Of a stretch of 64,000 nucleotides of DNA, positions 2,649-57,619 are shown piece by piece. The notes beneath the pieces were generated by a model. It ran no database searches. It saw nothing but the letters and a program-made list of their open reading frames with translations, and had not been told where the DNA came from. Both the position numbers and the translations under genes were made by a program. The first letter of the stretch is position 1, and every line of letters begins with the position of its first letter. Origin of the DNA: a virus (Duplodnaviria; Heunggongvirae; Uroviricota; Caudoviricetes); IMG/VR virus record IMGVR_UViG_3300025858_001097; one strand, written 5' to 3'.

Positions 2649-2877
2649 TGTTTTTCTTATTTTTTTCCTTCCCTATAGAGAACAAATTTTTCCATAAAGA
2701 TTTCTTTTTTGGTGGGGGATTTGGCGTCAACCCCTTTTCAGTAACCGTCCAACTTGATGGTTTGCCTCCCTTTTCATAACCCCAAGTGCAAAAACCGCCA
2801 CATTCACATCTGTTTTTGTAAGCTGGTTCCCAAGGCTCTCCACAAATAACGCATATTAATTTTTTATCGTTTTCCAT
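2641..2877 (-). CDS. Cys-rich zinc-ribbon-like small protein
   Basis: CVICGEPW...CECGGFC...; 78 aa. Confidence 0.4.
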   Translation of the reverse strand: MENDKKLICVICGEPWEPAYKNRCECGGFCTWGYEKGGKPSSWTVTEKGLTPNPPPKKKSLWKNLFSIGKEKNKKNNG

Positions 2878-2908
2878 TACTTTTTCTCCTAAATATTTTT
2901 ATTATTTT

Positions 2909-3355: not shown

Positions 3356-3361
3356 AATATT

Positions 3362-31819: not shown

Positions 31820-32800
31820 TTAATAGTTAAAAAAATTCTTTTTAACTATATCTATAGCTTTTTGTGTTCTTTCTTCCCAATCAGTTCCACTCACAACCTC
31901 CATTTTTAAATTTTTAGATTTAAAAAAGTTGTATTGGAAATCACCAAGATCATCTCTTTTTTCTTTTGAAAGGCGAGTTCCATCTTGTATATAAGGGGCA
32001 TCTTTATCTAAGAAAATGTATAAATCGAATTTGTTTGCTTCTTCAATCCAATTATCGAATACGGGTTCAAGATCGAAGAAAAATTTAGAATAAGATTTTG
32101 TTGTATTTAAATTTGTGTCGCTAAATAATATCCTATTAGCGTGTTTTATTTCTTCGATTATGCCACTAGCATGAGCTTTTCCAACATTCATGATATCTTT
32201 TATAGTTGTATTGTCTGAATGTTCGATTATATCTCTACCCCACTCTTTTACATAAGATGTTTGAAAAACTTTTGACAATTTTTCTGTAAGAACTGTTTTT
32301 CCAGTACTTTCTGTTCCACACAGACATATTTTCTTAACAAAATAAGGTCTTGCTACAAGTGATATATAATCCCAATACTTGAAAGGATTTTCTCTTATCT
32401 GAGTGCCACTTATTGGAACAGTTTCACGTTTTTCGTCAAATATTACATATCCACAATTCATATACTCAGCAACATACTCTGCGTAAGGTTCTGAAGCAAA
32501 CACAACATCTACATTATCTAAAGTTTTACTTATGTGATCAGCCCATAGTTTAGATACTTCCCTATCAGAAACAGAAGTATATGGAAGTTTTACATCGGTA
32601 TATCTTATAATAACTTTATAATCATCCCTATATTTATCCGTAAGCCAGTGAAGTCTCACGTAACCTGGTATGGTTTCTTTTTCGTCATTCATACATAAAA
32701 GAACATATAAGAGATCACATTTCTCTTTAGCAAAATTTATAAGTGCTTCGTGACCTAAAGAAATTGGTTCTGCTTTTAAAATTATCAGTCCTCTTATCAT
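31820..32800 (-). CDS. nadR: NadR-like bifunctional NMN adenylyltransferase / ribosylnicotinamide kinase (no HTH domain)
   Basis: N-terminal cytidylyltransferase-like PISLGHEAL (H/TxGH); central P-loop GTESTGKT of the RNK domain; 326 aa. Confidence 0.7.
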   Translation of the reverse strand: MIRGLIILKAEPISLGHEALINFAKEKCDLLYVLLCMNDEKETIPGYVRLHWLTDKYRDDYKVIIRYTDVKLPYTSVSDREVSKLWADHISKTLDNVDVVFASEPYAEYVAEYMNCGYVIFDEKRETVPISGTQIRENPFKYWDYISLVARPYFVKKICLCGTESTGKTVLTEKLSKVFQTSYVKEWGRDIIEHSDNTTIKDIMNVGKAHASGIIEEIKHANRILFSDTNLNTTKSYSKFFFDLEPVFDNWIEEANKFDLYIFLDKDAPYIQDGTRLSKEKRDDLGDFQYNFFKSKNLKMEVVSGTDWEERTQKAIDIVKKNFFNY

Positions 32801-35018: not shown

Positions 35019-35473
35019 TATTTATTTATCTTAATATACTTACCAATAATAGCTGATTTATCCAACACATGTCCATCAATTTCTTTCAAAAGTTCGGCTT
35101 TAGTATATCCTTCTTTGTTCAAAAAACAATCTAAAGCAAATATCTTAAAGAAATATCTATGAACACCATTTGGAGGGCATGGACCTTTATAATCAAATTG
35201 TTTATAGTCATTTTTTCCAAATAAAATTGGTGGTTGTGAATCTCCTTTTGTAAAGTGTTCATTAAACATAGTTGTAGTTGGTGGAATATTATATACAATC
35301 CAATGTACCCAATCTCCAACTGGAGCGTCGGGATCATCAACTAATAAAGCTAGACTAACAGTCGCTTTTGGAAAACCACTCCATTCTAGCTGAGGTGATA
35401 CATTTACTCCCTCGCAAGTAAATTTGGAAGGAATAAATTCACCATGTCTAAACGCGTTACTTCTTATTTCCAT
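35018..35473 (-). CDS. YbhB/YbcL-family phosphatidylethanolamine-binding (PEBP) protein
   Basis: LVDDPDAPVGDWVHW signature. Confidence 0.8.
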   Translation of the reverse strand: MEIRSNAFRHGEFIPSKFTCEGVNVSPQLEWSGFPKATVSLALLVDDPDAPVGDWVHWIVYNIPPTTTMFNEHFTKGDSQPPILFGKNDYKQFDYKGPCPPNGVHRYFFKIFALDCFLNKEGYTKAELLKEIDGHVLDKSAIIGKYIKINK

Positions 35474-37541
35474 CTTTTTCTTTTAACATTATTTTTAATT
35501 GAGCAAAACAATTAAATGGTACTCCTACAAAATAAAGTGGTTGATCTCCACTCCAATTTAATTGACCGCTCGCGAAATATTTTTGATTTGTTATATTATT
35601 AAAATAGATATTAAAATCTATCCAGTTCCAACTAACACCCAATTTTCCATTTAAAGTGTAATAAGAATCAATAGTTTCGGCTAAATCCGTCCCCAACCAT
35701 TTTGTATATCCGATGATACTTCCATCTTGATATCTACAAGATAAACCTACTACAAACCATTTATATTTATAATGACCTTCTATGTTACCTATCCATTTTG
35801 GAGATAATATTGGTTTATTTATTTGATTATTAGATTGTTTTATACCACAATCATTATACGAACCATTTACACCAATTCCTAAACCAAAATCCCATTTGTA
35901 TTTGAAATCTGCTTCAATTCCTCTTCTATAACTCTGTTTTACGTTATCGTGTAATGGAACTCCACTCATACCTATTTTACCATTTAAAACAATTTCATTA
36001 CTAAAATTCATATGGAAAAAATTGAAATTTATATAAAAATTTTTTTCTACTACACGAATACCAAGTTCATTATCTCGCGATTGTTCGGAATTAAGATTGT
36101 TATAAACAGCGTTACCAAGAGTATCACATGGTAAGTAGTTATACCCATTTAATACATCATTTCTTGATGGTTCACGATTATTTACACCATAACTATAATA
36201 AAACACAGTTCTATTTAAATTGTAATCTATTCCTAAATCATAATTTATAAAATTCCAATGTAAATCTGGCATAACAACATTATAATGAGGAGTAAAGTTC
36301 TCATCATAAGAAACATCGCCTTTATATTTAAAATCTGTATATCTATATTGAACATCGCCAAAAAGATTCAGATCTTTCCAAACATTATATTTAACTTTCA
36401 AATAACTACTTATTTCATTTCTATATCCAGTGTTTGTGTATTGATATCCATAAATATCATTATTCCCTATATGTTCTCTATCATATGTAAAACCGTGAGT
36501 TCCTAAATCGAAATAAAATCCTTTTATATTTTTTGAAAAATTTAAATATCCACCATACCAATTAGATTTAAAAGTATATTTGTCTATACCATAATTAATA
36601 TTATTCTGTAAGAAATTCTGTAAATCAAAAGTATAATAGCCGTGAAGATAATTATAATAAAGAGCATAATTCAATTTCGTTTCTTTATTGAAATTTATTA
36701 TGTGGTGAAATTGAACGTGTGTCTGAGCAAAATTATCTTGTTCTTTGTCTGTCGCACCGTTTGTTTTCCTATCTTCTCGAACTTTTTCCAACGGAACGCC
36801 CAACCACGCTAACTGATTATTTTGGGCTCCTATAAAAGATACTATTTTGAATGTATGTTTTTTTACATTAAAATATGAATTTAAAAATAAACTCTGTCCT
36901 TTATTACTGGAATGATATTTATATCCTTTTGTTTCTATATCTGATAATTGAAAGTAATAACCGCCACGTTTAAAATTTTGATCGACCTCTGCTCCAATAT
37001 TAAAACTATTGAAAGATCCGTATCCAAATTTAGCCGTCGCTTTATCATAAGTAGGGAAATGGGAATCAAAATTTAAACCACCTCCAAAACAAGATGATCC
37101 ATTTTTTGTTAAACTATTACCTCTTTGTATTTGAATCAAATCTAATGAATTAAAGAAATCTGGATAGTTTGAAAAATACAATCCTTGATCTTCGGGCTCA
37201 TTCATTGGCACTCCGTTTAGAGTGAAATTAATACGAGTTTGATCAATTCCTCTCATACGAATATAAGAATATCCATAGGGGCTACCAGCATCAGAATAAG
37301 ATGTGATAGAGGGTGTTGTAATAAGAATATCAGAAGGCTCTTGCCCGTGATATTTAAAATTTATTTCGTTCTTATTTAAATTTGTAAAAGTAATAGGAGT
37401 AAGATGATTCGCCTTGTATGGCGCTGTAATATTAACCTCTTTTAATTCTATCGTGTCCTTACCAATATGATAAATAGTGTCTTGACTATAACCCCCGATA
37501 GCGAAGATAAATAGAATAATAATAAATAATGTTCTTTTCAT
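35457..37541 (-). CDS. TonB-dependent outer-membrane receptor
   Basis: Signal peptide ending GGYSQD; plug-domain motifs (IQIQRGN..., RGIDQTRINFTLNGVPMN); long beta-barrel region; 694 aa. Confidence 0.7.
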   Translation of the reverse strand: MKRTLFIIILFIFAIGGYSQDTIYHIGKDTIELKEVNITAPYKANHLTPITFTNLNKNEINFKYHGQEPSDILITTPSITSYSDAGSPYGYSYIRMRGIDQTRINFTLNGVPMNEPEDQGLYFSNYPDFFNSLDLIQIQRGNSLTKNGSSCFGGGLNFDSHFPTYDKATAKFGYGSFNSFNIGAEVDQNFKRGGYYFQLSDIETKGYKYHSSNKGQSLFLNSYFNVKKHTFKIVSFIGAQNNQLAWLGVPLEKVREDRKTNGATDKEQDNFAQTHVQFHHIINFNKETKLNYALYYNYLHGYYTFDLQNFLQNNINYGIDKYTFKSNWYGGYLNFSKNIKGFYFDLGTHGFTYDREHIGNNDIYGYQYTNTGYRNEISSYLKVKYNVWKDLNLFGDVQYRYTDFKYKGDVSYDENFTPHYNVVMPDLHWNFINYDLGIDYNLNRTVFYYSYGVNNREPSRNDVLNGYNYLPCDTLGNAVYNNLNSEQSRDNELGIRVVEKNFYINFNFFHMNFSNEIVLNGKIGMSGVPLHDNVKQSYRRGIEADFKYKWDFGLGIGVNGSYNDCGIKQSNNQINKPILSPKWIGNIEGHYKYKWFVVGLSCRYQDGSIIGYTKWLGTDLAETIDSYYTLNGKLGVSWNWIDFNIYFNNITNQKYFASGQLNWSGDQPLYFVGVPFNCFAQLKIMLKEKDGNKK

Positions 37542-38496: not shown

Positions 38497-39951
38497 TTAA
38501 GCTGCAGGCGTAGCTGGTGCTGGAGGTTGATCTTCTTTAAATCCGTAAGTCACCTCAGTCTTCGTTTTACCAGGAGTTTTACCTGGCACTTTCTTAGAAT
38601 CTATAGCATATAAAAGATCTATGTCATAGTAATCCTCACCAACTTTACCTATAGTTTTATTTAACTCAAATCTGTGTGTGACATCAGGAGGTGTTCGTTT
38701 ATTCTTATCGTGATAAACATCAACAGCATATTTTTTCCAAATCCATGTATTTAAAGGTTTTGAGAAAACCGAATCTTCTTTAGCATACCATTTCTTTGTA
38801 TATTCACACCAAACGATGTGTGGGGATCGTGGGAAAGCATATTCATTATTGTAAGAAAGTCTTATCACGTCTTCTGTGGCACAATAAGCATTATCATACC
38901 TACACCAAGTAGCTCTACTTTCGGGAATATCTTCATCGTTATAACCATCGTGAACAATTGGATCATAATCATCGTCGTCTCTCCATTGTTCATAATGCCC
39001 TTCGGTGTCAGTTAAAGTATAATATTCTCCCTCAAGATCATCGACACTCGATAGTTTCTTTTGTTCATGATAAAAATATCTTAAAGTATCCACATAAGGA
39101 AATAAATCAAAGTTCGTATTTTCTAAAATAACTTCCATCTCAATATCCTGAGATCCTTTACCAGGAACAATTATATAAGTTCCACCATATTTTTGTTCGT
39201 CTTTACAATACCATCCTTCACGTTTAGCATAATTGGTGAATAATATTTCATCTTCGTCTTTATTAGTATAAACTCTATCCATAAAAATAGCTCCTTCCGG
39301 TTTTGATAATTTCCAAACTAACGCTCTTCCTCTAATCTTATTACCATCGCTATTTTTAAGTATGAACAATTTACATTGTTTTGGATTGTTTCTATAGATG
39401 TTTAAAAATCTTCCACAATCCTCGTGTGACATACAAGAAGCTCCCATAGTACCGCGTAGACTATCATAATTTCTTGCATCATACCAATAAACAATGTTGT
39501 CTCCATCAACCAATTCAAAATTACCAGATTCTTCAGTTTCTTTTACTATGGTTTTAAACTTCTTCACGAACTTTTGGACAGAATCCTCACTAAATTTTGG
39601 AAGATTTTGAATGATGAATCTTCCAATTTTTTGAGTAGTTCTCATTTTAGAAGTCCAAAATTCTTCCTTGGGCTTACCTTCTTTTTTGAGTCTTTCTATT
39701 CTAGAAGATTGTAAAAAAGAAACACTCTCACCGTCATCTTCTACATCAACGTAAGAGAAATCAAAGAGACGATCGACTTCTTCGAGTTCTAAAATACGTT
39801 TTGATATATTACTTTGTTTTATGTTCTGAATAGAAATTAAAACATCTTTAAATCTATCAGATAATATCATTTTTTGATCGGGCTGCTTTACTTTTTTCTC
39901 TCCTTTTTCGGCAGCTTCTTTCAAATAATCAAAATATTTATTAATACTCAT
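38497..39951 (-). CDS. paralogous family member A (uncharacterised; SCM(R/S), NPK/NPDK, GRAL.W, FMDRVY and YPYVDTL motifs)
   Basis: Conserved blocks shared with 41792, 43036, 44038, 55024 and 56098. Confidence 0.6.
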   Translation of the reverse strand: MSINKYFDYLKEAAEKGEKKVKQPDQKMILSDRFKDVLISIQNIKQSNISKRILELEEVDRLFDFSYVDVEDDGESVSFLQSSRIERLKKEGKPKEEFWTSKMRTTQKIGRFIIQNLPKFSEDSVQKFVKKFKTIVKETEESGNFELVDGDNIVYWYDARNYDSLRGTMGASCMSHEDCGRFLNIYRNNPKQCKLFILKNSDGNKIRGRALVWKLSKPEGAIFMDRVYTNKDEDEILFTNYAKREGWYCKDEQKYGGTYIIVPGKGSQDIEMEVILENTNFDLFPYVDTLRYFYHEQKKLSSVDDLEGEYYTLTDTEGHYEQWRDDDDYDPIVHDGYNDEDIPESRATWCRYDNAYCATEDVIRLSYNNEYAFPRSPHIVWCEYTKKWYAKEDSVFSKPLNTWIWKKYAVDVYHDKNKRTPPDVTHRFELNKTIGKVGEDYYDIDLLYAIDSKKVPGKTPGKTKTEVTYGFKEDQPPAPATPAA

Positions 39952-39970
39952 TTTCTATACAAAATATTTT

Positions 39971-41467
39971 TTAGAATTTCATGTCACCGACATCAACTCT
40001 TATGTCTTTTTCTCCTTTATTCTTAAATGAAATTTTAATGATCAGTTTGTCTGGTCGAATTCCAATAATTTTTCCTTCACCAAAAATGGGGTGGAAAATT
40101 ACTAATCCTTCTTTCAAATCTTTTTCTGTGAGTTTCCTACTACCACCGGATTCAGATTTTTTCTTAAAATCGTACTTTGAGAATTTATCTGGTGGAAGAA
40201 TGAATTTGCTATTCATAGTGGTTGTTATAATCACTTTTGGATGAGGTCCTTCATTATCCACTTCTGTTATTGTTCCAAAAAGTTCACCTGTTTTACTATA
40301 AATTTCCATATCCTTTTTGGCTTCATCGAAAGTAACAGGACTCATTCCCTTACTATCAACAACTTCTTCTCTCTTAACTTTCGTAGGATCAAAATCTGGT
40401 GTTGTGTAGAATCCTACGTAATCAACCCAAATAGCGTCTTTCTTTAGACACCATTGTTTGTCGTGTTCGCACCATTGAGCATCGGCCACCTTAACGGTAT
40501 TTCCGAGATAGTCTTTGACCTCTGTTTGACCCGGTGCTAATTGTCCTGGTCCTGTTGTTGTAGATCTTGCGGATGTAGTTTGTCCGTAACCTCCGCCTTC
40601 CCACCAACGATCATCACGTTCCCAATCTGAATAATATTTACCACGACGTGAGTAAGAATATTGATGCTCAACTTTAGTTGGATCTCTTTTCACTGGAAGA
40701 GTTTCCCAATCTACTTTACAACAAGCTTCTGCTAACTTTTCCAAAAAAACTATATTTTGTTTTTCGCGAACTGAGTGTTGATCATCATAACCAACACTAA
40801 GATTTGTACACTCGGGGAATTTTTCAGCAACTTGATGTGAATCTGTTACAGCTCCTGTTGGATCTTGTTTATATTTAAATCCACCAGCTTCATTTAACCT
40901 TTTAGCTAATTCATCTGCAAATTCAGCCGAACAACATCTTTCACCCATTTGGAAAGTAATAACACTATCATAATCTCTACGGTCTAATGAAATTACTTTA
41001 TTTATTTTTTTATATAATTCGTCATCTTTATTGCTACCCAAATATGTATTTAGAGCTCTAGATCCAACGCAACCATGTTCTTCACCATGAAAGAAATAAT
41101 AAAGACCTTGAATACCTTTCCCTATCATATATATCATAATAGTAGCGCCAGCTTTATCGTCCGCACCAAGTAGGGTTTTTCCGTCTGTTTCGATGTAATC
41201 TCCTTTGATGACATGCTTAACTTCTTTTGGTTGTCCGCTGTCTGCTGTATCCATATGGCAAGCAAACATAACGGTAGGATCTCCAATTTTGAAATAATAA
41301 TTTCCATTGGCATCCTTTTTCCACCCGCTAGGCAAATAAGGTTCTATCAACTTTTCGTTGCCTCCTGGCATTGTGGTACTTGTTAATTTTAAAAATAGGT
41401 CTTTGATTGTGGACATTTTATTTATGCTTATTTTTTTATCTTCTTTATTTTCAACAAAATCTTTCAT
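39971..41467 (-). CDS. M20-like (peptidase T-like) zinc metallopeptidase / amidohydrolase, paralogue 1, with a C-terminal extension
   Basis: FACHMDTA (HxD), LGADDKAG and HGEEHG (EE) motifs of M20/M28 dizinc hydrolases; about 50% identity with 45585..46733 over the catalytic region. Confidence 0.55.
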   Translation of the reverse strand: MKDFVENKEDKKISINKMSTIKDLFLKLTSTTMPGGNEKLIEPYLPSGWKKDANGNYYFKIGDPTVMFACHMDTADSGQPKEVKHVIKGDYIETDGKTLLGADDKAGATIMIYMIGKGIQGLYYFFHGEEHGCVGSRALNTYLGSNKDDELYKKINKVISLDRRDYDSVITFQMGERCCSAEFADELAKRLNEAGGFKYKQDPTGAVTDSHQVAEKFPECTNLSVGYDDQHSVREKQNIVFLEKLAEACCKVDWETLPVKRDPTKVEHQYSYSRRGKYYSDWERDDRWWEGGGYGQTTSARSTTTGPGQLAPGQTEVKDYLGNTVKVADAQWCEHDKQWCLKKDAIWVDYVGFYTTPDFDPTKVKREEVVDSKGMSPVTFDEAKKDMEIYSKTGELFGTITEVDNEGPHPKVIITTTMNSKFILPPDKFSKYDFKKKSESGGSRKLTEKDLKEGLVIFHPIFGEGKIIGIRPDKLIIKISFKNKGEKDIRVDVGDMKF

Positions 41468-41531
41468 TTTAGTAGATAATTTTGTTGTTGGTTCTTTCTT
41501 TTTATATCGCGTTTCCTTTTCCTCTTCTTCT

Positions 41532-41762
41532 TCAATTTCTTTGGTACATTTGATTTCTATACGGCGTGAAATCTTTATCTGATAAAAAATTTTCTACTCT
41601 TTTGTTCGATTCACTTTTACCGCCTAATTTATATTCGTCATCTAAAACTCTGCTTAAAAATTTAGCAACTTCTTTTGCACTGGAATTTAACAATTGTTTT
41701 TTGAGTTCCCCCAATTCACTTTCAGATAGATCTCCTACTTTAGTTTTTGACAAATCGAACAT
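41532..41762 (-). CDS. hypothetical protein (76 aa)
   Basis: ORF track; promoter-like box at 41785-41796 overlapping the stop of the upstream gene. Confidence 0.45.
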   Translation of the reverse strand: MFDLSKTKVGDLSESELGELKKQLLNSSAKEVAKFLSRVLDDEYKLGGKSESNKRVENFLSDKDFTPYRNQMYQRN

Positions 41763-41791
41763 TTATATTCTATTATTTTTTATTCTATATA

Positions 41792-43009
41792 TTAAAAATT
41801 TTTTTTGAGTATGTACTCACCAGTTTCTTCGTCTTTCATCATATCGTCTTTCAAATATATTTTTGAACCCAATCTGACAAATTCGTGTTCGGGTGTTACA
41901 TAATCATCTCTATATTTTAATGGAACAGCATCATTTTTGTGTACATAGACATTATCATATTCCGACCAAATCAGAAAATCACGATAAACCATTCTACCCA
42001 AATAATCTATTCCGAAATTATAATTACTATCTACTAGTGGTTCTCCGTTAGCCATAACCAAAGCTAACCAACCAGTTTTATTAAATTTTTCAACGTCACT
42101 TGTAAGAATCGCTTCTTCTGGATTATAAAATTGTAAAGTATCTACATATGGATAATGTTCGTGATTAATTTTATTCAGATTTACTGTCATTATAATTTTT
42201 TCTTCTTTCCCTTTATTCACAACTGGAATAACACTTCCTCCATACATTTGTTTACTTTTATAAATATAATCATTTCTTATTGCATAATCTATAAAAAGTT
42301 TAATTTGCCAATCATAAGTGGTGTATATCCTATCCATAAAAATTCTTCCAGCCGGCTCATCCAGATACCATAAATTGGCTCTTCCGTATATCTTATCTTC
42401 ATTTGGATCTTTCAGTATTAACATTTTCATTTTATCGGGATTCTTCTCGTATAAAGAAAAGAATATTTTAGAATCATCATATCTCATACAAGATCTCTGT
42501 AGTTGACCCGTGGCTTCCCCACTATACATTCTCCCACTATAATATTTAATAATTTCTTTTCCTTCAATTACAGAAAAATTTTCTACCTCACCTTTTAAAG
42601 CTACTTTATAATTCTTTATAAATTCTTCTATTTGCTGTTGAGTGAATTTATTTCCAAAAATTCTAGTTATAAACCTAGACAATCTCTGTTTTTGACGATA
42701 ATGCACCCAGCAATAATTTATACCTTCTTGATCTTTTCCTATAGATTTATATTTATCTAATATTTGTTTTGCTTTATTTGATGCTGTATAAGAAACAAAA
42801 TCATCCTTTTCTTCTTCCACATCCACAAAAGAAATATCATATTTTTTATTATCATATTGAATATTCATTAGTTCATCTAGAATGGGATCTTCTGGCATAT
42901 CGGCCAAAACTTCCTTAAAAGTGTGAGAAAAAATCATGGGTAGATTATTCTCATCTTTCGATTCATTCAAAAATGATTTAAAACCGTATAATATCATTAA
43001 TAAAATCAA
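41792..43009 (-). CDS. paralogous family member B
   Basis: RSCMRY, NPDKMKMLIL, YGRANLWYLDEP, FMDRIY and YPYVDTL blocks. Confidence 0.6.
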   Translation of the reverse strand: MILLMILYGFKSFLNESKDENNLPMIFSHTFKEVLADMPEDPILDELMNIQYDNKKYDISFVDVEEEKDDFVSYTASNKAKQILDKYKSIGKDQEGINYCWVHYRQKQRLSRFITRIFGNKFTQQQIEEFIKNYKVALKGEVENFSVIEGKEIIKYYSGRMYSGEATGQLQRSCMRYDDSKIFFSLYEKNPDKMKMLILKDPNEDKIYGRANLWYLDEPAGRIFMDRIYTTYDWQIKLFIDYAIRNDYIYKSKQMYGGSVIPVVNKGKEEKIIMTVNLNKINHEHYPYVDTLQFYNPEEAILTSDVEKFNKTGWLALVMANGEPLVDSNYNFGIDYLGRMVYRDFLIWSEYDNVYVHKNDAVPLKYRDDYVTPEHEFVRLGSKIYLKDDMMKDEETGEYILKKNF

Positions 43010-43021
43010 TTATTTTCTGTT

Positions 43022-43037
43022 TCTATATATAAAATTT
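43022..43037 (-). promoter_or_regulatory. promoter-like box upstream of family member B, overlapping the stop of member C
   Basis: tctatatataaaattt. Confidence 0.4.
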
Positions 43038-43992
43038 AAAATTCAAAATCACTTCTTAATTCATAACTGCCTGTATGATCACAAAGATCGTAAAATTGTT
43101 TACATCCTATGCTTTTTAAGAATCTCGGATCGTTTGTCAAACTGCCACTTTTTGGATCATAGAAACCTAGATTGTCAACAAAAGGATAAAATTCATAATC
43201 TTTTGGGTTTATTTTTACAACCATAGTTTCTTTGATAATTTTATTATTAGATACAACTTGCAATACGTTATCCATACTCTCGAGTTTATACAGCCAATTA
43301 TTTTTTATTGCGAAATTTATAAACATATTTAGTATGAAGTCATCAGAGAAATATACTCTATCCATGAATGTTTTGTCGGGTCGATCCAAATTCCATAATA
43401 AAGCTCTACCAAGAATTTTCTGTTTATCATCATCCAATAAAATTAATAATTTGATTTTATCTGGATTTTCTGCGTAGATATTTAAAAAAGCTTGACAAAA
43501 TCTATATCTCATACAAGAATTTTTGAGATTTCCACCACCAACAGCATAATTTTCTTGACGATACCAATTCTTTATTTCATCTCCGATTACAGTTTTAAAA
43601 TTTCTGTTTAAATGTTTTGCTTTTATAATAGATTTATATTTATTTATAAAATTCTCTATTTCTTGCGGTTGAACTTTATCACCAACCAATCTAACAATCA
43701 ATCTTCCGATTCTTATTTCAATTCTTTGGGGATTGGACCAGCATTCTGATTCAATATCAGTCACTTTATCTTCTATCATTTTATTTACTTTATCGCCAGT
43801 GATAAAAGTGACAGTATCTTCTTTTTCTGTTCTATCTATGAATGTTTCTTTTGATAAAAATCTTTGAGTCGCCAATTTAAATAGTTCTCTTGATACATTA
43901 TCGTCTATTCTATTTAAAATTTTAGAAATTCTCTTAGACAAAACGAGTGGAAACAAGTCTGGATTTGAGATGTTGTACTTATCAAAGTTCAT
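43036..43992 (-). CDS. paralogous family member C
   Basis: NSCMRY, NPDKIKLLIL, GRALLWNL, FMDRVY and YPFVDNL blocks. Confidence 0.6.
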   Translation of the reverse strand: MNFDKYNISNPDLFPLVLSKRISKILNRIDDNVSRELFKLATQRFLSKETFIDRTEKEDTVTFITGDKVNKMIEDKVTDIESECWSNPQRIEIRIGRLIVRLVGDKVQPQEIENFINKYKSIIKAKHLNRNFKTVIGDEIKNWYRQENYAVGGGNLKNSCMRYRFCQAFLNIYAENPDKIKLLILLDDDKQKILGRALLWNLDRPDKTFMDRVYFSDDFILNMFINFAIKNNWLYKLESMDNVLQVVSNNKIIKETMVVKINPKDYEFYPFVDNLGFYDPKSGSLTNDPRFLKSIGCKQFYDLCDHTGSYELRSDFEF

Positions 43993-44037
43993 TTCAAATA
44001 ATCATTTTCGCGTATATATTTTATTTTGTATCTGGTT

Positions 44038-45456
44038 TTATATTGACTTTCTTTTTTTCTTTTTTTCTTTATTACTTCCCATCATTTCTCTTACGAAGCT
44101 ATTCTTTTTTATCAGTTCTTCTAACGCTTTTTTGTCATTGTTATTGATTTCAATTATTTTATTTTCATCATATTCATCTTTAAAATAGTATTCATCATCG
44201 ATTCCTTTTATTAGAAGATCCATTATATAAAATTTACCATCAACATATTCATATTCTTTATTTATATCGTTTCTTAAAAGATAATCAAAGGTTTTCCTAT
44301 CCTTGTCAAAATAAACTCTATACACATCGCCTTCCATCATAAAAGAACCAATCTTTTTAGAATAAACACTAGATTGTGAGGTTAGAAACCTTTTATGATG
44401 AGTAGAATATCTTAATTCTGATGGATAAGAATATTCGTCAAATTCTTTTATAAAGAAAGCGTTGTTTTTATGCGTATAACCATCACCATAATAACAGAAT
44501 ATAGAATCTTCTATGTTGATAAATTCTTTATTTAAAACATCGTAAACAAAATTTTCGTTTCCAGAATCCGCTCCGTTTGTTTCACGAAGCTTTACAATAT
44601 TAGAAATCTCTTCATATTCCTTATCTATATTTGTTAGATATTTTTCTTTCGCGTTATAATAAAATAAAGTATCCATATAAGGAAAGTATTTAAAATCTCC
44701 CTTAACATGAACTTTCATATCAATATTGATTTCAAAACCATCTTTTACGACTTTTACGGCATCAAATGTCTGGGCTGCTTTATACAACCATCCTTGTTTT
44801 TCAGCGTGTTTCTTGAAAAGAATAGCGTCAGAATCTTCCTTAACGTATATTCTATCTAAAAGCCAAGTATCACTTGGTTCGTCTAATTTCCAAAGAATGG
44901 CTCTTCCACCAATAAGATCTCTACTTTCCTGAAGAATTAACATTTTTATTTTATCTGGATTCTTTGTATATAAATCCATATATTGCTCACATTGATCGTA
45001 ACGCATGCAAGACTTATTCAGTGAACCATTGCCTCTTGAATATCTTTTACCGTTATAGTATTTTGCAATTTCACAGCCTTCAACAATCTTAAATTTAATA
45101 TTTTTTAAAGCATTCTTATATTCAGCTTTAAATGAATTTACCCATCTTTCAATTTCTGATGGTGTATAAAAAGGAGCAATTTTGTTTATTAATCTACCAA
45201 CTCGAATTTCGTTTCTAGAACCGCACGACCATACCATATCACCGTTTCCTCTCACTTGAGGAATTTCTTGGTATTTATTAGCTTGAATAAAAGATACTGT
45301 AGATTCATCATCCGTTATATCGAAAAAAGAATACTGGAAAGCGTAGTCTTGATTGTTCTCCATAGAAAGAATGAAAATAGATATATTGTCATTGATTCTC
45401 GTGAGAATATCTCTAAATCTTGATGATAAAATTACTGGTAAATATACATTTTCCAT
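44038..45456 (-). CDS. paralogous family member D
   Basis: KSCMRY, NPDKIKMLIL, GRAILWKL, LDRIY and FPYMDTL blocks. Confidence 0.6.
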   Translation of the reverse strand: MENVYLPVILSSRFRDILTRINDNISIFILSMENNQDYAFQYSFFDITDDESTVSFIQANKYQEIPQVRGNGDMVWSCGSRNEIRVGRLINKIAPFYTPSEIERWVNSFKAEYKNALKNIKFKIVEGCEIAKYYNGKRYSRGNGSLNKSCMRYDQCEQYMDLYTKNPDKIKMLILQESRDLIGGRAILWKLDEPSDTWLLDRIYVKEDSDAILFKKHAEKQGWLYKAAQTFDAVKVVKDGFEINIDMKVHVKGDFKYFPYMDTLFYYNAKEKYLTNIDKEYEEISNIVKLRETNGADSGNENFVYDVLNKEFINIEDSIFCYYGDGYTHKNNAFFIKEFDEYSYPSELRYSTHHKRFLTSQSSVYSKKIGSFMMEGDVYRVYFDKDRKTFDYLLRNDINKEYEYVDGKFYIMDLLIKGIDDEYYFKDEYDENKIIEINNNDKKALEELIKKNSFVREMMGSNKEKKKKRKSI

Positions 45457-45584
45457 AAATGAAAATTAATTTTTAATATATAATGCAAATTGCGGATTAT
45501 AAATTGTTTTACAAAATTAATAAATTTAATTTAGATATTAAAAAATTTTATTAATTTTGTAAAAATAAAAGAATAAAAATATTT

Positions 45585-46733
45585 ATGGACATTAGAGCGA
45601 AGTTTTTAGAATTGACATCAAAAACATATCCTATGGGGAAAGAAAAGGAAGTATATAAATTTTTACCAGACGATTTTATTAAGGACCCATTTGATAATTT
45701 ATATTGGATAATAGGACATCCAGACACTTTATTCTGTGCTCATCTTGATACTGTCGGCGAGTCATCTGAAGTTGTACATGTTTTTGATGGAAATGTGGTC
45801 AAAACAAATGGGAAAACCGTTCTTGGAGCAGATGATAAAGCGGGAGTTGTTATTATGCTAAATATGATAGAAAAAAACATCCCTGGTTTTTATTTATTCA
45901 CTGTGGGCGAAGAAAAGGGGTGTCAAGGTTCGGCTAAATTATCTCAAAAATTACAGACAAAAGGAGACGATAAATTCAAAGGTATCAAAAAAATAATAGC
46001 CTTCGATAGAAGTGGATATAGTAGTATTATTACACACCAAATGGAACAAAGATGTTGTAGTGATGAATTTGCAAATGCCTTAATTAGAGAATTTGGAAAA
46101 GTAGGTCTCCAATACACATTAGACACGGGTGGTGTATATTGTGATTCTGCTGAGTTTGCGGATCTAATTCCCGAATGCACTAATATTTCTGTTGGTTATT
46201 TCGATCAACACAACGTAGTGGAAAAACAAGACATGGCTTTTTTGGAAAGGTTATCAGATGCTTGTTGTAAAGTAGATTGGAAATCATTACCAGTAAAAAG
46301 AGATCCTAAAAAAGTAGAATATATTGATAGTTATTATACTAGTAGAAAGAAAAGAACTATTGTAGGTGAAGATGAATCCGAATTTGATGATTATGATTTT
46401 CATCCAATGGCAGTTGAAGATAATAAAGATGTGGAAGTTTTCTATTTCGAAGATAAAAGATATAATTATATATCTGATATATCTTATCTAAATGGTGAAA
46501 TTGTAGATATTACTTTAAGTCAAAAACGCATTGAGCATGAATTAGAGGCAATAACAAAATATATAGAAGATAGTGGAATAATATATGATTTCGCTGTTTG
46601 GGATGGACTCATTTTGGTCGTCGAACACGACAAACACGAAACAAAAATATCAAGAAACGATCTCATCAAATACGTACCAATTCTCGATATAGAATTTATC
46701 AAGAAAGAGGTAAGACCAATTAGAAAATTTTAA
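45585..46733 (+). CDS. M20-like (peptidase T-like) zinc metallopeptidase / amidohydrolase, paralogue 2
   Basis: CAHLDTV, LGADDKAG and VGEEKG motifs; no TATATA box upstream, unlike most genes. Confidence 0.55.
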   Translation: MDIRAKFLELTSKTYPMGKEKEVYKFLPDDFIKDPFDNLYWIIGHPDTLFCAHLDTVGESSEVVHVFDGNVVKTNGKTVLGADDKAGVVIMLNMIEKNIPGFYLFTVGEEKGCQGSAKLSQKLQTKGDDKFKGIKKIIAFDRSGYSSIITHQMEQRCCSDEFANALIREFGKVGLQYTLDTGGVYCDSAEFADLIPECTNISVGYFDQHNVVEKQDMAFLERLSDACCKVDWKSLPVKRDPKKVEYIDSYYTSRKKRTIVGEDESEFDDYDFHPMAVEDNKDVEVFYFEDKRYNYISDISYLNGEIVDITLSQKRIEHELEAITKYIEDSGIIYDFAVWDGLILVVEHDKHETKISRNDLIKYVPILDIEFIKKEVRPIRKF

Positions 46734-50146: not shown

Positions 50147-50497
50147 TTATTCTAATTTTCCTTTATTATACCATTTAACTATCGTTTTTTCTTCTTCAAC
50201 TTGTTTGTATCCCATTCTTCGCTTAAAATCCTCATGCCATATTTCACAATATTCATCAAGAGTTACTTCTTTTCCTCTATAATACCATTTAGTATTAATA
50301 AGATCATTATTATCAAGATCTTTATAATATTCTTCTAATTTTTTCAATCTACTCAAATCTTTTACAAAAACTTTACGCCATTGGGGATCGCTTACAATAA
50401 CCGCAGATCCTGGTCCTTTTGATGTTACAACTCCAGGAAAAGATATGGTTACTCCTTTATAAAATACTTTATCTCCTATTTCAAAATTACTTTTCAT
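50147..50497 (-). CDS. hypothetical protein (116 aa)
   Basis: ORF track. Confidence 0.5.
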   Translation of the reverse strand: MKSNFEIGDKVFYKGVTISFPGVVTSKGPGSAVIVSDPQWRKVFVKDLSRLKKLEEYYKDLDNNDLINTKWYYRGKEVTLDEYCEIWHEDFKRRMGYKQVEEEKTIVKWYNKGKLE

Positions 50498-51347
50498 TAA
50501 TTAATTGATGTTTGTAAGTTAATAACATATCTTCCTTTTCTTTTGGAAGAACTGGATAAGCTAAATCCAATGCTTTCATTCTTTCAATCAAAATCTTAGA
50601 AACCAAAAGACGAGACAGTTTCTTTTTGTCAGCTGGAATAACATACCAGGGACTCTTTTCAGTTGAAGTATTGTTGATCATATCTTCATATGCTTCCATA
50701 TAATCATTCCAATAACAACGCTCTTTTAAATCCGCTTCTGAAAATTTCCAATTTTTAGCTTCATCTTCAATTCTTTCAAGAAGACGATTCTTCTGCTCTT
50801 CTTTTGAAATATTTAAAAATATTTTAACTACTTCAATTCCATTACGATTTAAATGTTTTTCAAAGTTACGAATATCATCATAACGCTCTTCCCAAACTTT
50901 ATCTGTGATAAGATCTGATGGTATCTTCTGTTTAGTTAATAAATTGTGAACTTTTACCACTAAAACCTCTTCATAATAAGAGCGATTGAATATTGCAATA
51001 TTTCCTTTATTTGGAGCAAAAACTTGAGCCTTCCAAAGCCATGTGTGATCAAGTTGCTCGGGCCCGGGTTGTTTAAAACTCATAACTTGTGTAGCTTGCG
51101 GATTCAATCCGCTCATAACATGCTTTATGATTCCATCTTTACCGCACGTATCCATCCCCTGAATTATCATCAGCATACCATATTTATCTTGTGCATAAAG
51201 CATGTCCTGCATAAGAGCAAGTTCTTTAATATGATCTACAAGATTTTGCTCAATATCTTCTTTGCTAAGATCAGATTTAATGGAAGTATCAAAATTTTTA
51301 ATTTTGAATTTATCTCTACCGTCAACAGTGTAATCTTTGATTTTCAT
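50487..51347 (-). CDS. ppk2: polyphosphate kinase 2 (PPK2) family
   Basis: Walker A GMDTCGKDG, followed by FNRSYYE-type motifs. Confidence 0.8.
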   Translation of the reverse strand: MKIKDYTVDGRDKFKIKNFDTSIKSDLSKEDIEQNLVDHIKELALMQDMLYAQDKYGMLMIIQGMDTCGKDGIIKHVMSGLNPQATQVMSFKQPGPEQLDHTWLWKAQVFAPNKGNIAIFNRSYYEEVLVVKVHNLLTKQKIPSDLITDKVWEERYDDIRNFEKHLNRNGIEVVKIFLNISKEEQKNRLLERIEDEAKNWKFSEADLKERCYWNDYMEAYEDMINNTSTEKSPWYVIPADKKKLSRLLVSKILIERMKALDLAYPVLPKEKEDMLLTYKHQLINEK

Positions 51348-51349
51348 TA

Positions 51350-52291
51350 TTATTTGTTGTTAATGAATAACTTACTCAATGATTTATGATTTACTATGTT
51401 GCGAATAGCTCTTGATAAAAGAGTTGATGCAGAAACCACCGTAATCTTACTGCTATTCTCTTTTAACGGAACGGTATCTGTTACAACTAGCTCGGTTAAA
51501 GCTGATTTATTTACGTTATCATAAGCGTCTCCACTTAAAATAGGATGAGTAACAACCGCTCTTACGCTGTTTGCTCCTCTTTCCATCATCAATTTGGCTG
51601 ATCTACAGAGAGTTCCACCTGTATCTATAATATCATCAACAATCACAACATCCTTGCCTTTGACATCACCTATGAGAATCATTTCATCTATTTTATTTTC
51701 TTTTGGTCTGTGTTTGTAACAAAGAACCATTTCGCATCCAAGACTTTCTGATAAATATTTTGCCTTTTTTGTTCCACCAGTATCAGGAGCTGCTACTACA
51801 AGATTTTGAAGACCCAATTCTTTTAGATAAGGAACAAACATATAAGAAGCTAGGAGCATATCTACAGGAATGTTGAAGAATCCACCAATTTGATCGGCGT
51901 GAAGGTCAATAGTAACGATTCTAGTCGCGCCGGCGGTTTCTAAAAAGTTGGCAACTAATTTAGCTCCAATGCCGCATCTTGGTTTATCTTTTCTATCCTG
52001 TCTTCCATAACCGAAGTATGGAACAACAGCAATGATTCTTGCAGCGGACGCTTTCTTTGCAGCATCAATCATCTGGAACAACTCCCAATAATTATCAATA
52101 GGAGCATATCCCGACTGAATGATGAACACTGAACGTCCTCTAATATTTTCTTTGAAAACTGGTTGGAATTCGCCGTCAGAAAACTTTGTAAGTTCTACCT
52201 GACCCAATCCCATTTTAAGATTTTTGGCTACATTTTCAGCAAGCGCTTTACTAGCTGAGCCAGCGAAGATCTTTACTTCACTTTTATCCAT
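51350..52291 (-). CDS. prs: ribose-phosphate pyrophosphokinase (PRPP synthetase) homologue
   Basis: DLHADQIGGFF and VVIVDDIIDTGGTL PRPP-binding loop; 313 aa. Confidence 0.85.
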   Translation of the reverse strand: MDKSEVKIFAGSASKALAENVAKNLKMGLGQVELTKFSDGEFQPVFKENIRGRSVFIIQSGYAPIDNYWELFQMIDAAKKASAARIIAVVPYFGYGRQDRKDKPRCGIGAKLVANFLETAGATRIVTIDLHADQIGGFFNIPVDMLLASYMFVPYLKELGLQNLVVAAPDTGGTKKAKYLSESLGCEMVLCYKHRPKENKIDEMILIGDVKGKDVVIVDDIIDTGGTLCRSAKLMMERGANSVRAVVTHPILSGDAYDNVNKSALTELVVTDTVPLKENSSKITVVSASTLLSRAIRNIVNHKSLSKLFINNK

Positions 52292-54224: not shown

Positions 54225-54974
54225 TTATATGTCCATTTTATGAAATTCCGTTTTCACACCTAAACAATCGCAAAAAGTCAATTTGGTTAAATCATGAAAA
54301 TCGTATGTTTTTATTTCAGGTACAGGGTTGTGACCTATTAGCTGATGATAACCAGGTAAAGGCTTTGTATAGATTTCTTGTTTACCAGCCCAAAGTGGTC
54401 CTCCAACTTTATCATGTCCTCCGCGTAAATGACCTACCATAAAAATAGGATCATAATTAAATTCAAACATCAAATTTAAAATATCAGCGATGTTCTTACA
54501 ATCATCTAAATATGGAGTAAAACGATTGTTAGTTTTTCTGTCTAAAACAGGTTGAACAAAATATTGCCACCAACCACGATGAATTCCAGCGTGAGTCCAG
54601 ATATTATATCCTTCTTGATAAGCTAACTGAAATAAATTACGATTTTCACGAAATAATTCATTTAAGTCGTGATACATCTCGGGGCGAAATCCGCTAATAT
54701 TTTCATTTCTTACATAAGCTATTTCATGATTTCCCCACAGCAAAACAACATTATCTGGATAATCTTTTTTTAATTGAATGATTTCCAATAAATTATCTAA
54801 AATTTGATCGTTTGTTCTCTCATAAGCATCAACATAATCACCCAAGAAAACAACTTTATCTATAGCCATTCCTAGACGGCAATACATGATTTCATCAGTA
54901 TCTTCATTGATACGATAAACCGCGTTTTTCCATCTATCGCGACCATGAACGTCACCTATTGTAACAATTCGCAT
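54225..54974 (-). CDS. calcineurin-like metallophosphoesterase (Ser/Thr phosphatase-like)
   Basis: GDVHG, GDYVD and GNHE motifs. Confidence 0.75.
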   Translation of the reverse strand: MRIVTIGDVHGRDRWKNAVYRINEDTDEIMYCRLGMAIDKVVFLGDYVDAYERTNDQILDNLLEIIQLKKDYPDNVVLLWGNHEIAYVRNENISGFRPEMYHDLNELFRENRNLFQLAYQEGYNIWTHAGIHRGWWQYFVQPVLDRKTNNRFTPYLDDCKNIADILNLMFEFNYDPIFMVGHLRGGHDKVGGPLWAGKQEIYTKPLPGYHQLIGHNPVPEIKTYDFHDLTKLTFCDCLGVKTEFHKMDI

Positions 54975-55023: not shown

Positions 55024-56079
55024 TTATTCTTGTTTTATTTCCACTTCTTTAGATTCAGCTTTAGTTTTTTCTTCGTCTTCTCTTTCTGTAACATATTTTC
55101 TGGGGCATTCTGCATGATAGGTATTATTCCATTGATAATTTCTATAAGGCTGTGGTAATCTTGTATAGTTGTCTGTTAATAAATTATGCTCGAAATTAAC
55201 ATACATCGAATCAAACGGACAATAATTCAGGAATCTGGTTTCTAATGATATTAAGAGGGTAGAGTAGTTTGGAGCGGTTGATTTTTCAATAGCGTTATAT
55301 TTATTTCTTAAATATTCTCTTATCATAATATCATATTTTCCCCCCACTCCATAAGCATTACCCCACACTGTATGAACTTCGCCCTTTTTCCAATCTCCAA
55401 CGGTTTCTACTTGTGGACCTTGTTGGAACGATCTACGTGCTACTATAACATCATTATCCCAAACAACAGCGACTCCACAATTATCTGGATTTTTTGTATA
55501 AATGTGAAATTGTGCTAAAGTTGGTTCTGGATAATTTCCAAACGCATTCTCGGCTTGTTTGAAATTAGCACAACTATAACCAAAATTTTTTATAAGTTCG
55601 TTGTTGTAATTGTAACCTCTGAGAAGTTCTTCGCCTCTATATTCTACAACTCGAGCGGATTTGTTTTTTATTTCAATGTTCCATTTATTTATAAAAGACT
55701 CTAAATCAACTGGTTTAATATAACTGTTTAAATAAGCTTCATTATACACTTCACGTAAAACTTTTGTTGATTTCATTTTAACTCTGCGCGGTGATGTCCA
55801 TAAATTTCCTTCGCTGAAAAAACGCGGTTTAATAAAAGAGATATTTCCTTCAGCGTCAACATCAAAATAATCTGGAGGTTCTTTTGTTGAATATTTTCTT
55901 TCAATACCTTCTTTTAATCTCAAATAAAATTCAGCCACTTTATATTCGTTTTTCATTGGCATTAAAATTTTCAAAAGTTTATTGGATATTTGAAAGAATA
56001 TCTTTTCATCTGGATCTTTTGGAGGAAGATCAGATTGAATTTGCTCATTAAGAAAATCTAAATAGTGTTTTATTATCAT
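55024..56079 (-). CDS. paralogous family member E (divergent)
   Basis: FGYSCANF, KNPDNCGV, ARR..QQG, YCPFD blocks; aligns with 56098 and more distantly with members A-D. Confidence 0.55.
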   Translation of the reverse strand: MIIKHYLDFLNEQIQSDLPPKDPDEKIFFQISNKLLKILMPMKNEYKVAEFYLRLKEGIERKYSTKEPPDYFDVDAEGNISFIKPRFFSEGNLWTSPRRVKMKSTKVLREVYNEAYLNSYIKPVDLESFINKWNIEIKNKSARVVEYRGEELLRGYNYNNELIKNFGYSCANFKQAENAFGNYPEPTLAQFHIYTKNPDNCGVAVVWDNDVIVARRSFQQGPQVETVGDWKKGEVHTVWGNAYGVGGKYDIMIREYLRNKYNAIEKSTAPNYSTLLISLETRFLNYCPFDSMYVNFEHNLLTDNYTRLPQPYRNYQWNNTYHAECPRKYVTEREDEEKTKAESKEVEIKQE

Positions 56080-56097: not shown

Positions 56098-57126
56098 TTA
56101 CCCCATACTTAATCCTCTTGTAAAATAATATGGATCTCTTTCAAAATTTAAATCTGGTTCTGGTTTTGGTTCGTTTAGATGTTTTTCTTCTTCTATTCTT
56201 TTTTTAACAAGTTTTGTAGGACAACTTGCTCCATAAGCTCTTGTCCATTTATGATTTCCTCCTCCACCATCGGATAATAAATTATCTTCAAAACACACTT
56301 CCATTCCATCGAAAGGAGGGTATGTAAGAAATCTGGTTTCAAATTTAATAATAAAAGATCCATCTTTTGTATGCATTCCATTGGCGTTGTATTCTTCCCT
56401 TAAATAATCTCTTATCATAACGTCATACACACCACCACATCCATAATGATTTCCATAAACAGTATAATATTGTCCTTTTTTATAATATCCTCTATTTTCA
56501 ACTTGAATTCCTTGTTGATAAGTTCTTCTTCCCATTATTTTTCCTTTATCGACAACTACCACAACTCCACAATTATCTGGATTTTTAACATAAACATCAT
56601 AAATATTGGTGTTTCTACCTTTATACCAATTAGCGCAAGAAAGACCGAAATTAGAAGATAACTCTCCTGTTACACCATAAGCTCTAAGAACATCTTCACC
56701 TCTTAGATCTTCTATGTGAGGTTTGTTATCTTCTTTTCTGTGTAATATCGACCACTTATTTACAAAAGCTTCGATATCAGTTTGCTTTATCTGACTATTT
56801 ATATAAGACTCGTTGTATATGTCGCGTAATATTTTTGAAGCTTTAGATTTTTGTCTTCTTTGTGAAGAAAATTCATTTCCTTTAAATTCTTCAAAATATC
56901 TAGATTTTAAAAAACTTATATTTCCTTCTGTGTCAACATCTAAAAAATCAACTGGATCTGTCACCAAATATTTCCTATCTACTCCTTCTTTCAAGCTAAT
57001 AAGAAGCATGGCTACTTTATATTCATCCATCATTTTTGTGAGATCTTTCACTAAATTTTGAGATAAATTAAAGACTCTTCTATCTTCAACTTGCTCATTT
57101 ATAAATCTATCAAATCTAGTTATCAT
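56098..57126 (-). CDS. paralogous family member F (divergent)
   Basis: FGLSCANW, KNPDNCGV, GRR..QQG, YPPFD. Confidence 0.55.
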   Translation of the reverse strand: MITRFDRFINEQVEDRRVFNLSQNLVKDLTKMMDEYKVAMLLISLKEGVDRKYLVTDPVDFLDVDTEGNISFLKSRYFEEFKGNEFSSQRRQKSKASKILRDIYNESYINSQIKQTDIEAFVNKWSILHRKEDNKPHIEDLRGEDVLRAYGVTGELSSNFGLSCANWYKGRNTNIYDVYVKNPDNCGVVVVVDKGKIMGRRTYQQGIQVENRGYYKKGQYYTVYGNHYGCGGVYDVMIRDYLREEYNANGMHTKDGSFIIKFETRFLTYPPFDGMEVCFEDNLLSDGGGGNHKWTRAYGASCPTKLVKKRIEEEKHLNEPKPEPDLNFERDPYYFTRGLSMG

Positions 57127-57475: not shown

Positions 57476-57619
57476 ATGAATATGATAAACAAAGAAAAAA
57501 TAACTATTTCCTTAGATAAAGAAATTATAGAAAAATTGGAAAAAATATCTGATGAACAATGCGTTAATAAAAGCAAATTCATAAATAAAATATTAAAAGA
57601 ACATTTTAAAAAATTATGA
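57476..57619 (+). CDS. ribbon-helix-helix (CopG/Arc-like) small DNA-binding protein, 47 aa
   Basis: Manual translation: MNMINKEKITISLDKEIIEKLEKISDEQCVNKSKFINKILKEHFKKL. A beta-strand plus two helices. Its stop overlaps the ATG of 57616 (ATGA). Confidence 0.45.
   Translation: MNMINKEKITISLDKEIIEKLEKISDEQCVNKSKFINKILKEHFKKL

Follow-up and report, generated by a model that had tools for sequence, protein, structure and literature searches.

An unnamed and very large family of phage proteins with a predicted GNAT fold and a recurrent M28-type peptidase neighbour: a possible group-transfer and peptidase module

What do six related genes of no named family do on a phage genome, and what are the two peptidase genes that stand among them? 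The question is raised by the stretch of DNA analysed here (the window), 64,000 nucleotides of a virus of the Caudoviricetes (IMG/VR record IMGVR_UViG_3300025858_001097). The answer that we favour, with a probability of roughly 40%, is that GNAT-derived group-transfer enzymes and an adjacent M28-type peptidase form a module whose substrates in the infected cell are proteins or peptides. The window comes from a huge phage of Bacteroidota and shares synteny with LR756503/LR756501, an 'uncultured phage' of 735,411 bp; huge-phage genomes above 634 kb fall in the Mahaphage clade, with predicted Bacteroidetes hosts (PMC7162821). An original prediction made from the letters alone had thought of large phages and giant viruses; the first part holds, the source being a very large phage syntenic with the 735-kb Mahaphage LR756503, but no link to eukaryotic giant viruses was found. 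The same prediction listed six paralogues, all of which we confirmed at their coordinates and on the minus strand. These six open reading frames (ORFs) are labelled A to F and the two peptidase genes M1 and M2 (lengths in amino acids, aa):

38497-39951, minus strand: member A, 484 aa; N-terminal domain, GNAT-like core and C-terminal aromatic repeat extension
39971-41467, minus strand: peptidase M1, 498 aa; inside the array, between B and A
41792-43009, minus strand: member B, 405 aa, TTG start; its orthologue in LR756503 likewise has 405 aa
43036-43992, minus strand: member C, 318 aa; minimal form
43600-43992, minus strand: N-terminal domain of C, aa 1-131
43123-43599, minus strand: GNAT-like core of C, aa 132 to about 290
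44038-45456, minus strand: member D, 472 aa; first gene of the array
45585-46733, plus strand: peptidase M2, 382 aa; divergent from D
55024-56079, minus strand: member E, 351 aa; divergent subfamily, with a Gly-rich loop Y243-G-V-G-G between strand beta4 (b4) and helix alpha3 (a3)
56098-57126, minus strand: member F, 342 aa; paralogue of E

Along the minus strand the first array reads D, C, B, M1, A, and M2 lies across a 128-bp spacer from D. The picture of an array bracketed by two hydrolases has to be redrawn, with M1 inside it and M2 divergent from its first gene.

Members A-D are 29-37% identical to one another (blastp E-values between 1e-35 and 1e-55 with the database size set to 1e8), E and F are 45% identical (E 2e-92), and blastp finds no link between the two sets (best E 0.07). 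When profiles were compared with hhalign, A-D and E/F aligned with a probability of 99.7% and an E-value of 3.3e-25 over 265 columns (60 versus 39 sequences). The hidden Markov model (HMM) of the main family matches A at 3.9e-171 and F at 8.3e-22. Taken at profile level, the alignment and the match of F place the six genes in one superfamily with two subfamilies, A-D and E/F.

Conservation was assessed on 182 homologues, each pair of which is less than 60% identical, with residues numbered as in C. About 20 positions are at least 95% conserved, and the near-invariant blocks are Y144, Y149, S159-C160-M161, Y173, N176-P177, G195-R196-A197, W200, D211-R212-x-Y214 and P270-Y271-x-D273. Y144, R196, Y214, P270 and D273 are present in every homologue (100%), S159, C160, W200, D211 and R212 in 99%, and Y173 and N176 in 98%. 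The motif blocks that had been ascribed to all six proteins are real in A-D, where they coincide with these positions, but E and F retain part of the set (S-C, Y, N-P, R, Y214 and F/Y-x-D). Common to both subfamilies are S19, R90, E113, F115, G137, Y144, S159-C160, Y173, N176-P177, R196, Y214 and F/Y271-x-D273. That so many polar residues are invariant fits the earlier suggestion of an enzyme rather than a structural repeat.

Each protein is made of an alpha/beta N-terminal domain of about 130 residues, which is novel, and a predicted GNAT-fold core, to which the long forms add a C-terminal extension of aromatic beta-hairpin-like repeats. The AlphaFold2 model of C, built with 60 diverse homologues, has a predicted local distance difference test (pLDDT) score of 95.3 and a predicted template modelling (pTM) score of 0.89. 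A Foldseek search of the PDB with this model gave nothing at E <= 1e-3; its top 50 PDB matches are all GNAT acetyltransferases, and two independent models have only GNATs as their top structural neighbours. The DSSP strings of both models contain the element order b1-a1-a2-b2-b3-b4-a3-b5, which in C covers residues 132 to about 250; helix a4 of the GNAT order is not evident in these strings. Judged by the two models, the core belongs to the GNAT superfamily fold, of which it is a new, very large and divergent branch, and the original view that it could be assigned to no known fold does not hold. The strand and helix order is that of the superfamily, and E/F also have its Gly-rich b4-a3 loop, here N-A-Y-G-V-G-G, a partial fit to the motif Q/R-x-x-G-x-G/A that lacks the leading Q/R. 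In contrast, A-D and the main family are without this motif, carry an invariant S-C-M in the a1-a2 loop and apparently miss a4. By GNAT topology the conserved positions would lie in the a1-a2 loop, on strands b3 and b4 and in the loop that precedes b6, elements that in GNATs frame the active-site (substrate) cleft.

M1 and M2 are 51% identical (blastp) and hence paralogous, as had been proposed. Their designation as M20, peptidase-T-like enzymes proved imprecise. Both match Pfam Peptidase_M28 (PF04389; M1 1.7e-5 and M2 2.1e-5; the two scores, 24.8 and 25.1 bits, lie just above the cutoff of 21.3) and phrog_4191 'peptidase' (1.4e-61 and 1.1e-64). Across 118 homologues the putative metal ligands of M2 (H53, D55, D84, E109/E110, D141 and H209) do not vary, and the gap from D141 to H209 is only 68 residues long, so that there is no room for the M20 lid domain. 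An M20/peptidase T identity was rejected on its scores (PF01546 at 15.1 bits against a cutoff of 24.6, and the PepT-like NCBIfam model TIGR01883 at 46-52 bits against 274); the best PDB match of M2, PepT 3gb0, spans residues 47-122 only. We consider M1 and M2 to be lid-less, M28-type di-zinc peptidases of the MH clan that are probably active. They have the H-x-D, D, E-E, D, H ligand pattern and spacing of M28 enzymes such as the Vibrio and Streptomyces aminopeptidases, but the match to this family is very distant (25 bits) and they are cytoplasmic and phage-encoded. They are further set apart by an extra, conserved C-terminal region of about 130 residues in M2 and by a repeat module and beta-rich tails in M1. 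In M1 an M28-like catalytic domain (about aa 40-290) is followed by a low-complexity linker, then by the module (aa 325-369) and by tail domains that are small and rich in beta structure. Within aa 386-431 of M1 Pfam gives only a weak PRC-barrel match (E 0.042), and its tail 'VIFHPIFGEGKIIGI...' (39971-40105, aa ~455-498) resembles what we take to be the C-terminal Tudor/SH3-like motif of PcrA/UvrD. The M42 aminopeptidase to which the original prediction also pointed (469-1587, minus strand; NCBIfam lysyl aminopeptidase, 4.7e-51) is real, but 37 kb separate it from the array, and nothing that we found connects it with the family.

To follow the pairing of the two gene types, six-frame ORFs of every fetched locus were compared with the family HMM and a peptidase HMM. 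A peptidase gene was found no more than 8-12 kb from a family member in 12 of the 23 non-redundant loci, usually directly adjacent, upstream and on the same strand. The hydrolase association is thus real and conserved at other loci. In the Cellulophaga phages phi38:1 and Calle_1 a 'peptidase' gene is followed immediately by a family member, and as phi38:1 can be cultivated, genetics and biochemistry of the module are feasible there. The gene layout of the window is repeated in LR756503 and in a contig (L029) that was reached independently through a peptidase homologue. A 760-aa protein divergent from the peptidase homologues of L026 and L028 was considered as a hidden member and rejected.

A shared sequence module joins the two gene types as well. 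M1 and members A, B and D, and likewise their orthologues, have a common C-terminal module of about 45 residues, with the motif W-C-x-x-D-x-x-W-C-x-K-x-D-A... in M1:

38743-38931, minus strand: shared module in A, aa 341-403; W-C-x-Y-D-x-x-Y-x-x-x-E-D-V; module HMM 2.8e-19 and 3e-4
40361-40495, minus strand: shared module in M1, aa 325-369; module HMM 1.8e-23
41852-41992, minus strand: shared module in B, aa 340-386
44383-44523, minus strand: shared module in D, aa 312-358

Positions 321-384 of the family HMM align to residues 316-372 of M1 with an independent E-value of 5.9e-9. In LR756503 a stand-alone ORF of 131 aa (locus L001, 1869-2264) is essentially this module alone (module HMM 9e-19).

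Under the reading that we favour, A-F would be acyl- or aminoacyl-transferase-like enzymes transferring groups to amino groups of proteins or peptides, each old and conserved paralogue being specialised for its own target or donor. Their core carries an invariant set of polar and aromatic residues (Y144, S159-C160, Y173, N176, R196, Y214 and D273, together with W200 and D211-R212 in the main subfamily). The adjacent lid-less M28-type peptidase would act on the same substrates by trimming or cleaving them, and the C-terminal module common to M1 and A, B and D may bring it to them. There are partial precedents. Rac (gp28) of LUZ19/phiKMV is a GNAT that triggers cleavage of the alpha subunit of host RNA polymerase (PMC7552054); it is likewise a phage GNAT-fold protein of the early region whose outcome is coupled to proteolysis of the target, but it is a small canonical GNAT that uses a host protease, whereas the family adjoins a peptidase of the phage's own. 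T4 Alt, ModA and ModB are likewise paralogous phage transferases kept for different host targets, although their fold and chemistry are others (ADP-ribosyltransferases with NAD+ as donor). If the reading is true, a GNAT-derived enzyme that has no coenzyme A (CoA) loop and is paired with a dedicated M28 peptidase may point to a chemistry of host takeover that is new.

The peptidase also leads beyond the huge phages. By tblastn the M2 catalytic domain was found in 368 phage records, among which the first word of the organism name is Klebsiella in 231, Pectobacterium in 51, Vibrio in 42 and Thermus in 10. The matching phages that we inspected belong to Drulisvirus (Klebsiella), Phimunavirus and Kotilavirus (Pectobacterium), Maculvirus (Vibrio) and Oshimavirus (Thermus P23-45/P74-26). 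In all ten Autographiviridae looked at (F19, fHe-Kpn01, CB5, Ep4, OWB, M3, C171, BF25/12, PPWS1 and PP16) a hypothetical protein of 544-712 aa, in two pieces in CB5, is encoded directly upstream of the peptidase, and the pair sits in the region before the primase. In CB5 this is the early region, and the peptidase is among six ORFs conserved there (PMC6115819), so that the pair may act early.

These upstream proteins carry the ordered motifs W/Y..Y..SCM, P-V..Y, D-N-x-L, G-R-[AG], R-x-Y-G and P-Y-[VL]-D and end in Cys- and aromatic-rich C-terminal repeats. A profile of the ten sequences aligned to the family profile (hhalign) with an E-value of 1.3e-4 over 258 collinear columns, the invariant motifs being aligned, and the core alone gave 6.7e-4. 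With the single sequences F19_09 and CB5 gp14, hhalign found the C-terminal repeats only and missed the core. When a regular expression for the ordered motifs, designed after both groups had been seen, was run on 545 real ORF segments, only family members and the Autographiviridae proteins matched it; of 10,900 shuffles not one did. We regard the upstream proteins as probable remote homologues of the family. If this homology is true, the module occurs in Klebsiella and Pectobacterium phages that have been sequenced by the hundred and are therapeutic candidates. One pair comes with protein evidence:

L041 (MN380459), 713-3899: fHe-Kpn01 g12 (probable family homologue), g13 (peptidase) and g14, annotated as virion-associated

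The g13 protein is 38% identical to M2 (E 2e-39). Liquid chromatography-tandem mass spectrometry detected g12, g13 and g14 in purified fHe-Kpn01 particles, whereas the flanking g10, g11, g16 and g17 were not detected (PMC7291057 Table S2). The toxic protein Gp10 of this phage was rejected as a module member, being a 69-aa protein of a different gene.

A wider form of the proposal would extend the transferase-peptidase module, not recognised before, across the early regions of Autographiviridae (of Klebsiella, Pectobacterium, Dickeya, Pseudomonas and Vibrio), Cellulophaga Callevirus and the 600-735 kb Bacteroidota megaphages with their 7-15 paralogues. It would amount to a protein modification of a new kind, in which a GNAT-derived fold transfers acyl or aminoacyl groups from a donor other than CoA through an invariant site of Cys, Arg, Asp and Tyr, coupled to N-terminal trimming or cleavage, on host or phage targets and possibly after delivery with the virion. 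In this full form we think the proposal unlikely to be right.

A number of points weigh against a catalytic module of this kind. No GNAT Pfam model matches the six proteins or 60 diverse homologues (E <= 0.05-0.1), and a catalytic residue is not assignable from sequence and model. In A-D and the main family the b4-a3 loop is acidic and free of glycine (Y214-[TF]-x-x-D-x-D); it stands in place of the CoA pyrophosphate loop, which makes canonical acetyl-CoA use by the main subfamily doubtful, and the donor may not be acetyl-CoA. Adjacency to the peptidase depends on the lineage and is not seen at 11 of the 23 loci, and the peptidase is also found without the family; since each occurs without the other, the link is frequent, not obligate. 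The Autographiviridae homology rests on a P of about 1e-4 and gene context and is not significant database-wide, and a structural or ejected role fits the presence of fHe-Kpn01 g12, g13 and g14 in virions equally well.

The acidic loop, in arguing against acetyl-CoA, keeps alive a more specific case of the favoured reading, in which the family forms peptide bonds, adding residues from aminoacyl-tRNA to the N termini or side chains of proteins in the manner of Fem or leucyl/phenylalanyl (L/F) transferases, and an M28-type aminopeptidase, by exposing or removing N-terminal residues, completes an N-degron-like editing of N termini. Aminoacyl-tRNA-using enzymes of the GNAT fold have no CoA pyrophosphate loop, which is also missing from the main subfamily, and M28 enzymes are typically aminopeptidases. 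The genomes that carry the family are also rich in translation genes, such as a tRNA and RtcB near the pair in phi38:1 and aminoacyl-tRNA synthetase genes adjoining the peptidase homologue in L028. However, the top structural matches are ordinary acetyltransferases, the Gly-rich loop of E/F is typical of CoA binders, and Fem proteins have two GNAT domains in tandem where the family proteins have one. We hold this mechanism to be distinctly unlikely.

The virion data bear on another explanation, namely that the proteins are GNAT-fold pseudo-enzymes without catalysis, which are virion-associated and ejected or which bind or inhibit host factors, the peptidase serving for maturation or being co-packaged. 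The finding of g12, g13 and g14 in particles in which the products of flanking early genes were not detected agrees with it and recalls T4 Alt, which is packaged in the virion. So does the loss of the cofactor loop in the main subfamily, and the C-terminal repeat and zinc-finger extensions of some members suggest protein-protein binding (a DnaJ-type zinc finger, CXXCXGXG, is present in 4 of 60 aligned homologues). Against this, about 20 polar and aromatic residues have stayed near-invariant despite divergence to about 25% identity, which would be unusual if the proteins were purely structural. Moreover, gp037 and gp038 of phi38:1 are not annotated as structural in a record that stems from a virion-proteomics study, and 7-15 copies per megaphage genome would be odd for a virion component. 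On balance we find pseudo-enzymes unlikely and keep to group-transfer enzymes as the better account.

How large and how widespread is the family? None of A-F matches Pfam, PHROGs or NCBIfam, the sole Pfam match (Phage_TAC_19 on B, E 0.019) having been dismissed as chance, and a PDB sequence-profile search gave spurious antibody light-chain matches only. PADLOC, a library of defence and not of anti-defence proteins, has no match for any of the eight proteins (A-F, M1 and M2). Megablast against deposited phages found no DNA similarity. When 1.84 billion representatives at 50% identity were searched exhaustively with HMMER, 6,095 proteins passed E <= 1e-3 and 3,108 of them E <= 1e-30, and the relatives found by a profile search of 5.8 billion proteins are all unnamed or 'hypothetical'. 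Among 50,697 deposited phage genomes tblastn detected the family in only 12 records, which comprise five megaphage records (634-735 kb, 7-15 places each) and seven Cellulophaga Callevirus (one copy each). A pattern scan, of limited sensitivity, covered 185,579 genomes of bacteria and archaea and found no relative. For E/F, a small subfamily, there are 40 database matches. Fused domains that might be informative were looked for in three long members of the family (P0121, P0122 and P0220), which have none. By these searches the family is very large, restricted to phages and without a name in any source, as its earlier description as uncharacterised had it. With more than 6,000 metagenomic clusters at 50% identity and no Pfam, PHROGs or NCBIfam entry, it is a sizeable block of phage 'dark matter', for which the fold assignment and the conserved enzymatic partner provide a testable hypothesis.

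Each of the six paralogues has a one-to-one orthologue in LR756503, with amino-acid identities of 58-75% (75% for A). In the six orthologue pairs the proportion of non-synonymous differences (pN) is 0.15-0.26 and that of synonymous differences (pS) 0.60-0.85. Synonymous sites are saturated between the window and LR756503, which makes the ratio of the substitution rates (dN/dS) unusable and limits the statement to a pN far below pS. It follows that the duplications are old and that purifying selection has maintained every copy individually. This is not what was expected of the locus at the outset, when it was read as a rapidly diversifying array of anti-defence or host-interaction paralogues of unknown fold. 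The tandem paralogy is real, related megaphages carry 7-15 copies, the C-termini vary and the family is unannotated, all of which would suit such an array. Yet the orthologues are paired one to one and conserved, a fold can be assigned, the defence-protein library of PADLOC gives no match, and no link to a known defence or anti-defence family was found. We consider rapid anti-defence diversification very unlikely; if the paralogues are group-transfer enzymes, their expansion could illustrate the way in which a single enzymatic scaffold is diversified by huge phages.

The stretch common to the window and LR756503 runs from phosphoribosyl pyrophosphate (PRPP) synthetase by way of PPK2 and DNA ligase to the divergent peptidase, and from there through the array, with M1 inside it, to a TonB-dependent receptor. 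In the window a PRPP-synthetase-like gene adjoins PPK2, and there is a NadR-like gene (cytidylyltransferase and AAA_28); these lie at 50487-52291 and 31820-32800, both on the minus strand. LR756503 (L001, 17903-20796) also encodes nicotinate phosphoribosyltransferase (NAPRTase), NAD synthase and ADP-ribosylglycohydrolase. From their sequences the two sets together look like phage genes for salvage or reconstitution of NAD+. The TonB-dependent receptor (35457-37541, minus strand) has a Plug domain and a beta-barrel, with a syntenic copy in LR756503.

Such auxiliary metabolic neighbours (PRPP synthetase, PPK2, NadR-like, the TonB-dependent receptor, and NAPRTase and NAD synthase in LR756503) would also suit a metabolic role, in which the family N-acylates amino acids, polyamines or nucleotides and the peptidase is an ArgE/DapE-like deacylase, or else the family modifies DNA bases like Mom. 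HHpred matched the fHe-Kpn01 peptidase to DapE (PMC7291057), GNAT and MH-clan peptidase operons occur in the N-acetylglutaminylglutamine amide (NAGGN) pathway (description of NCBIfam TIGR03106), and Mom is a DNA modifier of the GNAT fold (PMC7824862). But many paralogues with variable, interaction-like C-terminal modules fit macromolecular targets better, the peptidase is without the M20 lid/dimerisation domain of ArgE and DapE, and the Autographiviridae pair is found among early genes, not genes of nucleotide metabolism. Action on small molecules or DNA thus seems to us quite unlikely, and we retain proteins or peptides as the more plausible substrates of the transferase-peptidase module.

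The region between the two divergent genes at the head of the array has a symmetry of its own:

45457-45584, no strand: D/M2 divergent intergenic region, containing a palindrome with 21-nt arms

The arms of the palindrome (inverted repeat I10; 45507-45527 and 45544-45564) are 95% complementary and separated by a 16-nt spacer, and each, read towards its own gene, holds TAATTTTG. The Bacteroidota -7 promoter consensus is TAnnTTTG. By comparison with this consensus, the palindrome may be a symmetric pair of divergent promoters; it may also be a shared operator. A sigma-70 promoter scan, which is unsuited to Bacteroidota promoters, showed no enrichment over shuffles.

Other genes of the window are of note. 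A calcineurin-like metallophosphoesterase (54225-54974, minus strand) is encoded directly downstream of E on the same strand, and DUF7487 proteins at 57616-59268 (plus strand) and 61385-62275 (minus strand) recur near family members in the unrelated contigs L023 and L025. The window is AT-rich, with a GC content of about 29%, apart from an island of 0.45-0.50 at 22-30 kb that is explained by an ORF of 2,898 aa made of collagen triple-helix repeats (22068-30764, minus strand; Pfam Collagen, 2.7e-187). Further giant collagen-like ORFs lie at 11759-15766 and 5602-9372, both on the minus strand, and an RCC1-repeat beta-propeller protein is encoded at 17454-18638 (minus strand; Pfam RCC1, 1.2e-56).

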